From a virus (Duplodnaviria > Heunggongvirae > Uroviricota > Caudoviricetes), in IMG/VR virus record IMGVR_UViG_2648501669_000005: 4,313 nt of DNA; one strand, written 5' to 3'. Shown one piece after another: positions 1 through 4,313 of the stretch. The translations under genes and the position numbers were made by a program. Each line of letters starts with the position of its first letter. Position 1 is the stretch's first letter. Below the pieces are notes generated by a model. The model did not search any database and had not been told where the DNA came from. It saw only the letters and a program-made list of their open reading frames with translations.

Positions 1-42
1 AAGTTGGAGTCATTACCAAATAAACATATCGAATTAACTTAA
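1..42 (+). CDS. 3' end of an upstream ORF running off the window start (possibly the major tail/tail tube gene, by position only)
   Basis: Frame 1 is open from base 1 to TAA at 40-42, directly abutting the Shine-Dalgarno of the next gene. Too short to judge coding potential; the other two frames carry stops. Confidence 0.25.
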   Translation, partial: KLESLPNKHIELT

Positions 43-49
43 GAGGAAA
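41..49 (+). promoter_or_regulatory. Shine-Dalgarno sequence (AAGAGGAAA) for the ORF starting at 55
   Basis: Purine-rich AAGAGGAAA lies 5 nt upstream of ATG at 55. Confidence 0.6.
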
Positions 50-54
50 CAAGA

Positions 55-363
55 ATGAATATTAATGAAATGCTGAAAGCTCTTTCTCCGAAACGCGAAT
101 CTCTGACCATCGGTGGATTCACTTTCTATGCTCGCCCTATGTCAGTAAAAGAATTTAACGAACATGTTTTCAATACCGATAAAGATGACCGTGATGAACG
201 TTCTATTCTTCGTTGTATTGAAGATGAAGACGGTAAACCAGTATTTGAATCTATGGAACAAGTTAAGGCACTGTATACTAACGTCCGCAGTGAATTAATC
301 GGTTTGGTTGCTCAAGCGTCATTGATGCAAGATCCGACAGTAATTGAAAACGAGGTAAAGTAA
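55..363 (+). CDS. putative phage tail assembly chaperone (lambda gpG-like position), 102 aa
   Basis: Complete ORF with a strong SD, located immediately upstream of the tape measure gene and followed by a -1 frame ORF, which is the conserved G/GT arrangement. Assignment is by synteny and size, not by a verified domain match. Confidence 0.6.
   Translation: MNINEMLKALSPKRESLTIGGFTFYARPMSVKEFNEHVFNTDKDDRDERSILRCIEDEDGKPVFESMEQVKALYTNVRSELIGLVAQASLMQDPTVIENEVK
354..363 (+). other. candidate -1 ribosomal frameshift site (G GTA AAG TAA) at the end of the chaperone ORF
   Basis: The 0-frame ends GAG GTA AAG TAA. The -1 frame is open from 348 (after TGA at 345-347) into the ORF starting at 393. An A AAG lysine codon followed directly by a stop resembles known Lys-tRNA slip contexts. 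Confidence 0.35.
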
Positions 364-392
364 ACCCGCTTCTGAATTTCTATTTTCGGCAA

Positions 393-734
393 ATGATGCG
401 ATCGGGGCTTAGTAAAGATGAAATGGATAATATGCCAATCACTCTGTTTTGGAAATTATACATTTTCGACACCTACTTAGAACCACAAAGCCCCGCGTTT
501 CATGATATGCAGAATGCGATGTTGCAATATTCCATGTATATGACGTCGCAAGGAATGACACGCGAAACTGCACGCAAACTCAAGCCTAGCCAATTCCAAT
601 TAATTAGAGAAGAAAAACTCTTTAAAACTAAAGAAGAACTGGAAGAAATTGCACGCAAGAAAGAAGAAGAACGTAAAGCGGCAATGCTGAACATGTTTGA
701 TCCATCTTTGCTTGAGAAACTCAGAAGCGGTTAA
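393..734 (+). CDS. putative T-like extension of the tail assembly chaperone (113 aa from first ATG), likely expressed mainly as a frameshift fusion with 55-363
   Basis: ORF is in the -1 frame relative to 55-363. No recognisable SD precedes ATG 393 (upstream is tattttcggcaaATGATG). It ends 11 nt before the tape measure start. The Lys/Glu-rich C-terminal part is typical of the GT segment. Confidence 0.5.
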   Translation: MMRSGLSKDEMDNMPITLFWKLYIFDTYLEPQSPAFHDMQNAMLQYSMYMTSQGMTRETARKLKPSQFQLIREEKLFKTKEELEEIARKKEEERKAAMLNMFDPSLLEKLRSG

Positions 735-739
735 AGGGG
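734..739 (+). promoter_or_regulatory. Shine-Dalgarno (AAGGGG) for the tape measure gene
   Basis: AAGGGG lies 6 nt upstream of ATG 746 and overlaps the stop of the preceding ORF, consistent with translational coupling. Confidence 0.55.
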
Positions 740-745
740 TAATTT

Positions 746-3175
746 ATGACAAAACATATAGTAACAATAGAAGGGGATAATAAAGGTCTAAGGAGAAGTA
801 CCAATGAAGCCGCCGACCTTCTCGATAGTTTGTCTGAAAAGGCAAGTAATATTGATTTTGGTGGTGGCTTATCTGGTCTGACTGGATCTCTTCGTGGGAT
901 CGCTGGCTCTGCTGGTTTGGCTGCTGGTGGTATCGGCTTAGTTGCGACCGCAGTGGTTGCAGCCGCTAAAGCTGGCGCGGAATACGTTAAACAATATTCA
1001 GAAGTATCTAAGGCGACCGGACTCTCGATTGAATCCCTTCAAAGACTGGAAAAGGAATTTTCTGGTACTGGCCTAACAGTTGAAAAATTCGGTGATATCA
1101 ACAAAGACACCTTAGATAAGATGGGTGATGCATGGGCTAACGGTGGTGGTATTGCTGATGACTTAGAATCGGTTGGTCTTAAGTTAGAAAACTATGCTCA
1201 CTTCATGACAGATCCGCAAGGTGGTATGAAAGCGGCGATCCAAGTGTTCTATGACATGAAGAAAGCCGGAAAATCAATGGCTGAAATCAAGTTCATGATG
1301 GAATCTTTAGCCAGTGATTCAAGCCATATGACCAGCCAGCTTGAGAAATATAATAGTGCTCAAGAGGCGATGATCGCTATTCAGAATCAATCTGTTAACG
1401 TCACCGAAGAAAACGCTAAAAAATATGATAAATTTTCTCAGAATATTAATAAGCTGGAAAATAACCTGAAAGGCGCAGCCATGACCATTACTGGTCCTTT
1501 GGTTGATAGCTTAAACTGGTTATTTGAATGGTTTAATATTGATTGGGAAAAGAGTTCTCTATTCAGGGCATTAGACCGTCTGAATAAAGAAGGTAAGACC
1601 GCAACTGGTGGTATTCTTAACACCAACCATAAAGACGCTCAAAAGATTATTGACAAGTACAATAAAGAAAAGCGTTGGAATAATCTAGCAGATTGGGAAA
1701 AGGCCGCGATCCGTGGTGCTGGTGTCGATCCTCGTACTGCTGGCTTTGATGTAGAAGGATTTAAGAAACGTTTTGGTGGGTCTTATAAGAAAAATGGTGC
1801 TCTGATTGTCGTAGATGCTGGTGAACATCTGACACGCAAGGCAGATCCTAACACTGATTTAACTCTACCAAATAAACCAGTAAGACCAGAATCATTGGGT
1901 AAATCTGGCAACGAGAAGAAAGCCGAGGAAGAAGCACGCAAGAAAGCGGAAGAGGCAGCTAAAAAGGCTAAGGAAGCCGCAGAAAAAGCACAGAAAGAAC
2001 GTGAGGATGCAATCAAGCGTCTGAATGCACTTGATGTTAAATTGCAAGGGCAAGTTGCAGCGTCTATTGCTTCTCAAAACAAGCAGTTAGAAGCCAGCTT
2101 GAAAGATTTGGATACTGCTTTAGATCTGGGCTTAATCTCTCAGCAAGACGCAGCCGCGAAACGCCAATCCTTAATCGATCAGAATACTGAAAACGTATAC
2201 AAGATGATTTTAGGTGCTGATCCGGTTGATGCTCTGAATGCTTTAACACAATTGCAACAAATCAGGGATAATGAGTTAGAAAGCCATAAACGGTTACTTG
2301 ATGGTAAGGCTATCTCCTACGAAGAATATATGCGTCGTGTGAATGATACCGAACAAAGTTATTCGCAGATTGAAGATTCTTTGCATGGAATGGATGGTTT
2401 TAAAACCAATCAGTTGACCAATAGCTTAGACTATCAGGACTCAAATAATCCGTTTGCTAAATTTAATGCAATCGATAAAGAGAAATCGGAAGCCGAACAA
2501 GATTATAAAACCGATAAACTCAAGATTGATGGGATCACCGATCCGGCTAAACGGATGGAAGAATTAGAAAAACTCAATGAAAACCATCAAAAACGAATGG
2601 CTGCAATTGAGAAGAAATATGCTGATGCTCGCCAGTCAATAGCCGATGATATGTACGGCGGTTTTGCTGCTGCAATGACTCTCTTCGGGCAGGAAAACAC
2701 TAAAGCTATGCAGATGGCTTTCAATGCTCATAAAGCATTCTCTATCGGACAAGCGACGGTGAACATGTGGACGGCTGCTACCGATGCATGGAACGATCCG
2801 ACCAACGTAACCACAGGTCAAAAAATCGCTGCTGCTGCATTGGCTGTTTCTCAGAACATGGGGAACATCGCAAACATCAAGTCTACTAACGTTAGCGGTA
2901 TGGCTCATGATGGTATCGATAATATCCCTCGTGAGGGTACATGGTTGCTTGATAAGGGTGAACGAGTAGTTGATCAGCGTACTAACGGTGATTTGAAAGA
3001 CTTCCTTGCTGCTCAAAAATCAGGCGGTGGCAACTCTCAGCCGATTGAAGTTAACGCACCTTTGAACATTAACGGCAACGTTAATAGCTCAGACAAGATG
3101 GTCATGGATGCTATCAAACGTCACGCTAAGTTAGTTGCTCAGGCGGTAGAAGACGCACAACGCCGTAAGATGTAA
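746..3175 (+). CDS. phage tail tape measure protein (tail length determinant), 809 aa
   Basis: Largest ORF, directly downstream of the chaperone pair. It has a Gly/Ala-rich hydrophobic segment near the N-terminus (GGGLSGLTGSLRGIAGSAGLAAGGIGLVATAVVAAAKAG), a central Lys/Glu/Ala-rich predicted coiled coil (KKAEEEARKKAEEAAKKAKEAAEKAQKERE) and a C-terminal hydrophobic Ala/Gly-rich segment. This composition and position are characteristic of tape measure proteins. Confidence 0.85.
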   Translation: MTKHIVTIEGDNKGLRRSTNEAADLLDSLSEKASNIDFGGGLSGLTGSLRGIAGSAGLAAGGIGLVATAVVAAAKAGAEYVKQYSEVSKATGLSIESLQRLEKEFSGTGLTVEKFGDINKDTLDKMGDAWANGGGIADDLESVGLKLENYAHFMTDPQGGMKAAIQVFYDMKKAGKSMAEIKFMMESLASDSSHMTSQLEKYNSAQEAMIAIQNQSVNVTEENAKKYDKFSQNINKLENNLKGAAMTITGPLVDSLNWLFEWFNIDWEKSSLFRALDRLNKEGKTATGGILNTNHKDAQKIIDKYNKEKRWNNLADWEKAAIRGAGVDPRTAGFDVEGFKKRFGGSYKKNGALIVVDAGEHLTRKADPNTDLTLPNKPVRPESLGKSGNEKKAEEEARKKAEEAAKKAKEAAEKAQKEREDAIKRLNALDVKLQGQVAASIASQNKQLEASLKDLDTALDLGLISQQDAAAKRQSLIDQNTENVYKMILGADPVDALNALTQLQQIRDNELESHKRLLDGKAISYEEYMRRVNDTEQSYSQIEDSLHGMDGFKTNQLTNSLDYQDSNNPFAKFNAIDKEKSEAEQDYKTDKLKIDGITDPAKRMEELEKLNENHQKRMAAIEKKYADARQSIADDMYGGFAAAMTLFGQENTKAMQMAFNAHKAFSIGQATVNMWTAATDAWNDPTNVTTGQKIAAAALAVSQNMGNIANIKSTNVSGMAHDGIDNIPREGTWLLDKGERVVDQRTNGDLKDFLAAQKSGGGNSQPIEVNAPLNINGNVNSSDKMVMDAIKRHAKLVAQAVEDAQRRKM

Positions 3176-3177
3176 TT

Positions 3178-3225
3178 AAAAGCCCCCATAGTCATAAATA
3201 ATCATAAAACTATGGGGGCTTTTCT
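3178..3225 (+). terminator. perfect 14-bp inverted repeat hairpin with an 18-nt loop followed by TTTTCT; candidate intrinsic terminator or attenuator, or an RBS-sequestering structure
   Basis: AAAAGCCCCCATAG (3178-3191) is the exact reverse complement of CTATGGGGGCTTTT (3210-3223). The loop is tcataaataatcataaaa. The T-run is short (4 T). The GGGGG of the 3' arm doubles as the SD of the ORF at 3226. Confidence 0.45.
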
Positions 3226-3786
3226 ATGTTCAAATCCAAGAATATTAAAATCACAGATTTTACTCTTAAATCAAAACAGCCTTTCTTCAAGGCGCAATCT
3301 ATCTCCGGTAAATTTCAACGTCGCTTTACTGGCATTCATTTTTACGAAGCAGAATTTACCGCGAATTACATGGCTCAGGATATTAACGAAGTAAAAGAAT
3401 TTGTAGCACGTCACCTTTTTGGTCGTCCTTTTAGTGTGCCACTGTCTTACTTTTCAAAATATACAGGTGATGTACGCCAGATGGTTACGGCTGCTGCTGG
3501 TACTGCTCGCGGTGGGCGTAAGGTGAGAATCTCCAACTTCACCGGAACACTGAAAGCGGGAACTATCATCCAGTTTGAGAACCACAAGAAAATCTACACG
3601 ATCACCGAAGATGTGAAATCAGGTGGCGAAATGAAACTCTTCCCTAATTTGCGTCAGAACGTCCTGGCTGGTGAGGTGATCAAGTATCAGAACGTAGAAG
3701 GTGAATTTGTTCTCAAAACGGAAAATATCGATTGGAAGATCGCCCAGATTGGCAAGATGAAATTCGAATTAGTGGAGAATGTATAA
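3226..3786 (+). CDS. phage tail component of unknown identity, 186 aa (position of distal tail / minor tail protein)
   Basis: Complete ORF starting 7 nt after a GGGGG SD, immediately downstream of the tape measure gene. Its stop overlaps the next start as TAATG. Function is assigned by synteny only. Confidence 0.55.
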   Translation: MFKSKNIKITDFTLKSKQPFFKAQSISGKFQRRFTGIHFYEAEFTANYMAQDINEVKEFVARHLFGRPFSVPLSYFSKYTGDVRQMVTAAAGTARGGRKVRISNFTGTLKAGTIIQFENHKKIYTITEDVKSGGEMKLFPNLRQNVLAGEVIKYQNVEGEFVLKTENIDWKIAQIGKMKFELVENV

Positions 3787-4112
3787 TGGCAACTATTCAG
3801 GAATCATTCAGCAAACTATGCACTAATCTGGACTTCATCGAGGTATACAACGACCAGACAGGTCAGAATGTGTCTAGATTGACTCTACCGCAGCTTTTCT
3901 CTACTGGCTCGATGTTTCACATTATCGAAGTGATAACAGCGTCAGGGGACGTTCTACGGCTTACAGATGGGTATTTCGATTTGGACTATAACGGTTTTAC
4001 ATATCTCGCAACGGGTGATTTTCTTCAAATCTCATCGAATACCGAAGAGAAGGAGATCAACAACAACGGGATCAACGTAACTGTTTCTAACGTTCGCGAA
4101 GAATACATTTGA
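3786..4112 (+). CDS. phage tail protein, 108 aa as encoded; probably 3'-truncated by the IS insertion (stop codon TGA is supplied by the IS terminus)
   Basis: ATG at 3786 overlaps the upstream stop (TAATG) and is preceded by GGAG at 3774-3777, so it is preferred over the in-frame ATG at 3732 given in the ORF track. The reading frame ends ...GAA TAC ATT TGA, where TGA is the first three bases of the IS end (TGAAGTGG...). Confidence 0.55.
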   Translation: MATIQESFSKLCTNLDFIEVYNDQTGQNVSRLTLPQLFSTGSMFHIIEVITASGDVLRLTDGYFDLDYNGFTYLATGDFLQISSNTEEKEINNNGINVTVSNVREEYI

Positions 4113-4313
4113 AGTGGTTTACTGAATTTGGCCACCTGAACAGAGGTGATATGCTCACCTCAGAACAACACAGGTGCCATAATGAAAAAAAGAAATTTCA
4201 GCGCAGAGTTTAAACGCGAATCCGCTCAACTGGTCGTTGACCAGAATTACACCGTGGCAGTACCAACCAGCCCTAACTAATCCGTCCACACCACAACGCA
4301 GCCCAGGGGCAAA
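4110..4313 (+). mobile_element. left end of an IS3-family insertion sequence (IS911-like): terminal inverted repeat, leader and start of orfA; extends beyond or is broken before the window end
   Basis: Begins with 5'-TG (TGAAGTGGTTTACTGAATTTGGCCACC...), typical of IS3-family termini. About 70 nt downstream is an ORF starting [26 protein letters not shown], which I recognise as the N-terminus of IS3-family OrfA (IS911-type). GC content is visibly higher than in the flanking phage DNA. Confidence 0.6.
4182..4280 (+). pseudogene. 5' fragment of the IS3-family transposase orfA (32 codons, then premature stop)
   Basis: ATG at 4182 is preceded by AGGTG. Translation is [32 protein letters not shown]. 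An intact OrfA is roughly 100 aa with a helix-turn-helix after this point. Here the sequence diverges after about 4260 and reaches TAA at 4278-4280. Confidence 0.45.

Follow-up and report, generated by a model that had tools for sequence, protein, structure and literature searches.

The contig analyzed here ends in a short open reading frame (ORF) that lies behind a set of phage tail genes, and the initial annotation proposed that an insertion sequence (IS) of the IS3 family had truncated it. The questions raised by this locus are which gene was interrupted, what supplies its stop codon, and what the interruption would mean for the prophage. The window, i.e., the whole 4,313-nt stretch of DNA that was analyzed, is the complete contig JRQF01000212.1 of assembly GCA_000768125.1. 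It comes from Escherichia coli strain 77-30253-3, from a copper-fed pig in Denmark according to the genome announcement; the assembly is a 790-contig draft obtained from Nextera XT libraries and MiSeq v3 2x300 reads. Positions 18-4109 are identical (4092/4092) to a prophage in the complete genome of the pig E. coli HCP5S3_I4 (NZ_CM149869.1; locus L022), and this prophage family was found in 56 of 5,426 complete E. coli genomes. The contig collection has 1,318 blocks that list an identical copy of the intact 186-aa distal tail protein, whose gene lies directly 5' of the interrupted one, hence the prophage is widespread. The features of the window are collected in Table 1.

Table 1. Features of the 4,313-nt window and the basis of each assignment
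Feature	Position	Strand	Basis
Right terminus of IS1	1-17	+	17-mer AAGTTGGAGTCATTACC, identical to the annotated IS1A end in L022
Tail assembly chaperone pair	55-734	+	Weak Pfam matches (Phage_TAC_13, Phage_tail_T); PHROG 344
G-like chaperone ORF	55-363	+	Tail assembly chaperone
T-like ORF	393-734	+	-1 frame, open from 348
Tail tape measure protein, 809 aa, intact	746-3175	+	PHROG 13674, E 8.8e-64
Distal tail protein, 186 aa, intact	3226-3786	+	PHROG 1302, E 1.5e-16
Truncated baseplate hub gene, gpL-type (DUF2163/PF09931)	3786-4112	+	Codons 1-108 of 217 phage-encoded (3786-4109)
Presumed 3-bp target site ATT	4107-4109	.	Inferred from duplications in 6 of 7 complete ISEc52 copies
Left end of ISEc52 (IS3 family, IS911-like)	4110-4260	+	151/151 identical to annotated ISEc52
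Error-laden continuation of ISEc52	4261-4313	+	30/53 identical in exact register

The last phage ORF encodes 108 amino acids and ends in ...REEYI followed by a TGA stop at 4110-4112, exactly as had been described; the database entry for its product is WP_244446039.1, 'hypothetical protein [Escherichia coli]'. The proposal that this stop is supplied by the terminus of an IS was borne out, because the sequence TGAAGTGG at 4110 is the start of an IS3-family left inverted repeat. Elements of the IS3 family have ends that begin with 5'-TG, and produce OrfAB, with its DDE (rve) catalytic domain, by a -1 frameshift. The terminal repeat with its 5'-TG is present at 4110, and the DNA from there onward, which the initial annotation had expected to be a known IS3-family element, is the left end of ISEc52. 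The identity through position 4260 holds for the ISEc52 copies of both E. coli GN02323 and Salmonella phage SEN22, and the name follows PGAP, which annotates identical copies as 'IS3-like element ISEc52 family transposase'. The left inverted repeat spans approximately 4110-4145, begins with TGAAGTGGTTTACTGAATTTGGCCACC... and is followed by the leader; orfA, which codes for a helix-turn-helix protein, starts with an ATG at 4182 and agrees with ISEc52 OrfA in all of its first 26 codons. The orientation of orfA is the same as that of the tail genes. Complete copies of ISEc52 are 1,250 bp long and carry imperfect terminal repeats of ∼36 bp, with TGAAGTGG starting both ends; the left repeat TGAAGTGG pairs with the right repeat TGAAGTGGTCAAC....

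The empty site was found in HCP5S3_I4, where the gene (15769-16422 of L022) encodes 217 amino acids and reads ...GAATACATT↓AGCCTGATTCG with no IS (in a longer reading, ...GAATACATT↓AGCCTGATTCGAAAC; the arrow marks the position of the junction). In 11 further relatives on long contigs the gene is likewise uninterrupted at this point, with ATT followed by ACC, ACT or AGC. Codon 108 of 217 is therefore the last one encoded by the phage, and the switch to the IS comes exactly before codon 109. Judged from these sequences, the coincidence of the switch with the end of the IS cannot be a matter of chance. A shift in base composition at the junction, also put forward in the initial annotation, did not stand up. 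The GC content is 41.6% at 18-4109 and 45.0% at 4110-4260, while the phage DNA by itself varies between 40.5% and 47.5% among 200-nt windows; the difference is too small to serve as independent evidence, and was discarded as such. Complete ISEc52 has a GC content of 51.6%.

The phage-IS left junction is absent from the 5,426 complete E. coli genomes, and it has no exact match in the JGI metagenome contigs or the GTDB representative genomes. The insertion allele was seen in one assembly; of the other loci examined, all have an intact hub gene except one that is cut by an IS5 (L013, see below). From these comparisons the insertion appears to be private to strain 77-30253-3. Seven other short contigs encode the identical 108 residues and end in ...ATT, ...ATTA or ...ATTAC. 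The idea that they carry the same insertion was rejected: their ends follow the intact allele, and they are contig-end partials that break at a polymorphic site.

The IS visible in the window amounts to 151 clean bp and 53 noisy bases, and the contig stops at 4313. The noisy bases (4261-4313) gave no other match among E. coli genomes and plasmids, which could give the impression of a second junction. This was rejected on the basis of the 57% in-register identity to ISEc52, compared with only 10-18 matches in shifted registers (binomial P ∼1e-6). The differences are mostly G and T replaced by C and A, and the contig extends 204 nt into the IS, i.e., less than one 300-nt MiSeq read. It is most likely that 4261-4313 is an untrimmed low-quality read tail. 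On this reading, the deposited 32-aa ORF (4182-4280), which ends at a false stop in orfA within the noisy stretch, is an artefactual truncation of orfA. More generally, contig ends in older MiSeq 2x300 drafts may carry tens of noisy bases that can mimic a second junction.

We considered whether the contig end itself could be a chimera of phage and IS DNA, with the hub gene intact in the real genome. The unreliability of the last 53 bases suggests that few, poorly trimmed 300-nt reads cover the contig end, and the seven contigs with the same 108 residues do derive from an intact allele. However, a chimera would be expected to break at a random position of the IS rather than at its terminal TG. 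Here the phage sequence gives way to the IS precisely where the inverted repeat begins, and the first 151 bases of the IS contain no error. We regard an assembly artefact as almost certainly the wrong explanation.

To which gene do the 108 codons belong? In a search with the intact 217-aa protein, 41 homologues were obtained, mostly of 214-221 aa together with a few shorter calls or partials, in agreement with the expectation that homologues of the product would be longer. Every homologue that reaches REEYI continues, with (T/S)LIRNKQFDKSD..., and therefore the window product aligns only to their N-terminal half. When the 108-aa fragment was used as the query, homologues of 175-189 aa were found, whose shorter length comes from the choice of start codon in the same gene; these, too, all continue beyond REEYI (TLIRNKQFDKSD...). 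The initial annotation had taken the ORF for the N-terminal part of a larger tail-tip protein. The protein is indeed larger, at 217 aa, but it is a small hub protein of the gpL type and not the large tip protein. The latter is encoded by a 1,258-aa GpJ-like gene, two genes downstream of the hub gene in intact relatives.

The assignment to the hub family draws on several lines of evidence. Residues 43-149 of the intact protein match PF09931 ('Baseplate hub protein, N-terminal attachment domain', formerly DUF2163) with 26.3 bits, a narrow margin over the cut-off of 26, and the 108-aa fragment scores 18.0 bits, below that cut-off. The source annotations of the relatives also name DUF2163 or baseplate hub domain proteins, and the intact protein matches PHROG 2048 'tail protein' (E 2e-27). 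A PDB sequence search with the intact hub protein gave no match. The AlphaFold model of an intact homologue is of moderate confidence (pLDDT 65, pTM 0.61), and fold comparison with this moderate-confidence model revealed a hub fold common to it and to solved siphophage tail-tip hub proteins. Finally, the gene order in 10 intact loci and in L022 is 809-aa tape measure protein, 186-aa distal tail protein, the 217-aa protein, a DUF6950 protein and a 1,258-aa protein with Phage_Tail_Tip and Ig_GpJ_C domains. We conclude from the Pfam and PHROG matches, the model and the gene order that the interrupted gene is that of a gpL-type hub protein. With its end at residue 108, the window copy stops within the Pfam domain and short of the strands predicted at residues 120-170, hence the second half of the domain and these long predicted strands are gone. 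As judged from its sequence, the window copy is a gene fragment and no functional member of the hub family. The cluster of the 217-aa protein (P0013, P0014 and P0024) also has 144-aa members, present on dozens of E. coli contigs, some of megabase scale; they may represent another recurrent truncated or frameshifted allele of the hub gene. In a comparison with 50,697 phage records, the sole match of the hub protein was to Escherichia phage DCP80 (141 kb), with 43.5% amino acid identity, and the prophage family is almost unrepresented among cultured phages.

Taken together, ISEc52 very probably transposed into the gpL-type hub gene between codons 108 and 109, with the IS end terminating the reading frame. 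A 1,250-bp copy of ISEc52 would have jumped into ...ACATT↓AGC..., the empty site being ACATT↓AGCCTG. Since the junction lies exactly at a codon boundary and the IS begins with TGA, the terminus of the IS itself ends the frame, and a 108-aa fragment is left that breaks off partway through the hub domain. Complete E. coli genomes contain ISEc52 at thousands of sites. Of seven complete copies analyzed, six have 3-bp target duplications (ATT, AAT, TTT, ATC, TGA and CAT), and such a duplication is the only feature common to the flanks of the copies; a TACATT flank and extended flank matches were tried as a target consensus and rejected, given that the flanks of the seven copies differ and that the ranking carried a selection bias. 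By analogy with these copies, we infer that the IS in strain 77-30253-3 is complete and flanked by an ATT duplication, with a right junction TTGTTGACCACTTCA↓ATTAGCCTGATTCGAAAC. A simple insertion predicts that this junction reads ...TTGACCACTTCA↓ATTAGCCTGATTCG.... In that case the tail genes would resume ∼1.25 kb further on, first with the 3' half of the hub gene and then with the DUF6950 gene and the 1,258-aa GpJ-like gene. The downstream tail genes would thus be displaced, as the initial annotation had supposed.

The predicted right junction (GTTGACCACTTCA↓ATTAGCCTGATTCG) had no match in JGI metagenome contigs. Exact look-up of 10 predicted 3'-remnant ORFs returned only forms of 97 aa and 93 aa, on short ENA metagenome contigs and none in NCBI. 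These results bear on an alternative in which the ISs mark the end-points of an IS-mediated deletion or rearrangement. The 4.1-kb tail segment would then be a prophage remnant on its own, and the rest of the hub gene (its 3' half) and the downstream tail-tip genes would be missing or would lie elsewhere in the genome. Such an event would agree with a right junction found in no collection searched, with predicted remnant ORFs that have no NCBI record, and with a contig that ends in IS sequence on both sides. Furthermore, the one reference copy of ISEc52 that has no duplication (L027, 1301-2561, in E. coli D9, NZ_CP010152.1; flanks ATG and CAA) joins a truncated cas3 to a truncated cas7 in a type I-E CRISPR-Cas locus, an apparent IS-associated deletion on the evidence of its sequence. 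On the other hand, short-read assemblies break at multicopy ISs, so that contigs bounded by ISs are to be expected anyway in a draft of 790 contigs. The collections searched exclude the other contigs of this assembly, and hence the missing junction says little. Moreover, the other six reference copies are simple insertions with 3-bp duplications. We consider a deletion or rearrangement unlikely, and favor a simple insertion of ISEc52 into the hub gene.

The left end of the contig is also IS-derived. The terminal 17 bp correspond to the end of IS1, and all intact relatives match the window from base 18 only. With an IS1 end on one side and ISEc52 on the other, the 4.1-kb phage segment is therefore bounded by ISs on both sides. 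The IS1 lies in an intergenic spacer, 37 nt upstream of the ATG of the tail chaperone gene, and on the other side of this spacer intact relatives carry a Gp38-like gene. A duplication of ∼9 bp would be expected around AAATAAACA for the IS1 insertion.

What would the interruption mean for the prophage? In lambda, gpL is required for tail-tip assembly, and a hub protein of half length should therefore abolish tail formation. Given the lambda precedent and the second IS at the other contig end, the prophage is probably unable to build tails. Polarity of the insertion on the downstream tail genes is also possible, and the presence of IS1 in the sequence of the other contig end supports prophage decay. 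It could be imagined instead that cells make the 108-aa hub fragment and that it serves a separate function, for example by hindering the tail-tip assembly of related superinfecting phages, or that the segment from tape measure to hub, bounded by IS1 and ISEc52, is kept as a unit. No positive support for a fragment with its own function or for a unit under retention was found in this analysis, and we judge these ideas highly improbable. Inactivation of the hub gene by ISEc52 is of an ordinary and already known kind, in which a common E. coli IS disrupts a structural gene of a resident prophage, and its importance beyond annotation is little. In practice, WP_244446039.1 is to be taken as the 5' part of a baseplate hub gene disrupted by an IS, and surveys of prophages or of induction should probably count the prophage of 77-30253-3 as defective.

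The genes upstream of the interruption form a tail module of the siphophage type. The tape measure annotation is also carried by the gene of a 100%-identical relative, and the distal tail protein has a weak match to the pb9 B-domain besides PHROG 1302. Read in the -1 frame, the T-like ORF is open from 348 and overlaps the last part of the G-like chaperone ORF. The sequence conserved at this overlap is GGTAAAGTAA, and GGTAAAG followed directly by a TAA stop (354-363) is kept in 12 of 12 relatives, one of which has a diverged upstream sequence. On this pattern of conservation, 348-393 is a candidate site for a programmed -1 frameshift of the G/GT type, with a non-canonical heptamer. The spacer that separates the tape measure gene from the distal tail protein gene contains, at 3178-3223, a long perfect hairpin (AAAGCCCCCATAG...CTATGGGGGCTTT; z -6.7, -24 kcal/mol) and then TTTC. 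From its sequence it looks like a terminator or an RNA-stability element within the tail operon; a simple terminator scan did not pick it up because of its long loop.

Across the loci of the family (L003-L012 and L022) there are a large serine recombinase, a fused protease-capsid gene and a Gp38-like adhesin, and a Gp34/Peptidase_S74 fibre gene sits between the head and tail genes. Several of the loci carry other ISs: L022 has two copies of IS2 and one of IS1 (2287-3515, 22885-24113 and 27328-28040), L008 an IS3-family element in a head/tail gene (732-1960), and L009 a DDE_Tnp_1 element after the fibre gene (4004-5116). This is a little-studied E. coli prophage family that has been repeatedly struck by IS elements, and as far as can be read from these sequences it seems to be commonly decaying or IS-tolerant.

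A parallel case comes from the same prophage family. In an E. coli contig from ENA (ERZ650938 NODE_323, 10001-11032; L013), a hub gene with 98% amino acid identity was independently cut by IS5, and the IS part of this contig is 100% identical to annotated IS5. The insertion lies at CTAG, at about codon 175, and yields a 187-aa product with a 12-residue IS-encoded tail, whereas in the window the stop follows immediately. The known proteins to which the interrupted gene can be compared are lambda gpL, Chi gp27, the DUF2163 protein of JBD30, the R4C hub and the N-terminal part of T5 pb3. Against the solved hub proteins, the sequence identity is just 9-18%, and the window copy retains residues 1-108 only. 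The IS lineage itself is also known from temperate phages. Over 4108-4260 the window is 93.5% identical to the annotated IS911 of Shigella phage Sf6, and over 4110-4260 it is 100% identical to the ISEc52-like transposon of Salmonella phage SEN22, which is flanked by the 3-bp duplication AAT. In both P22-like phages the element adjoins accessory genes of the ninG or antirepressor type. The prophage of 77-30253-3 is of the siphophage type and unrelated to the P22-like phages, and here, unlike in Sf6 and SEN22, the IS interrupts a structural tail gene.
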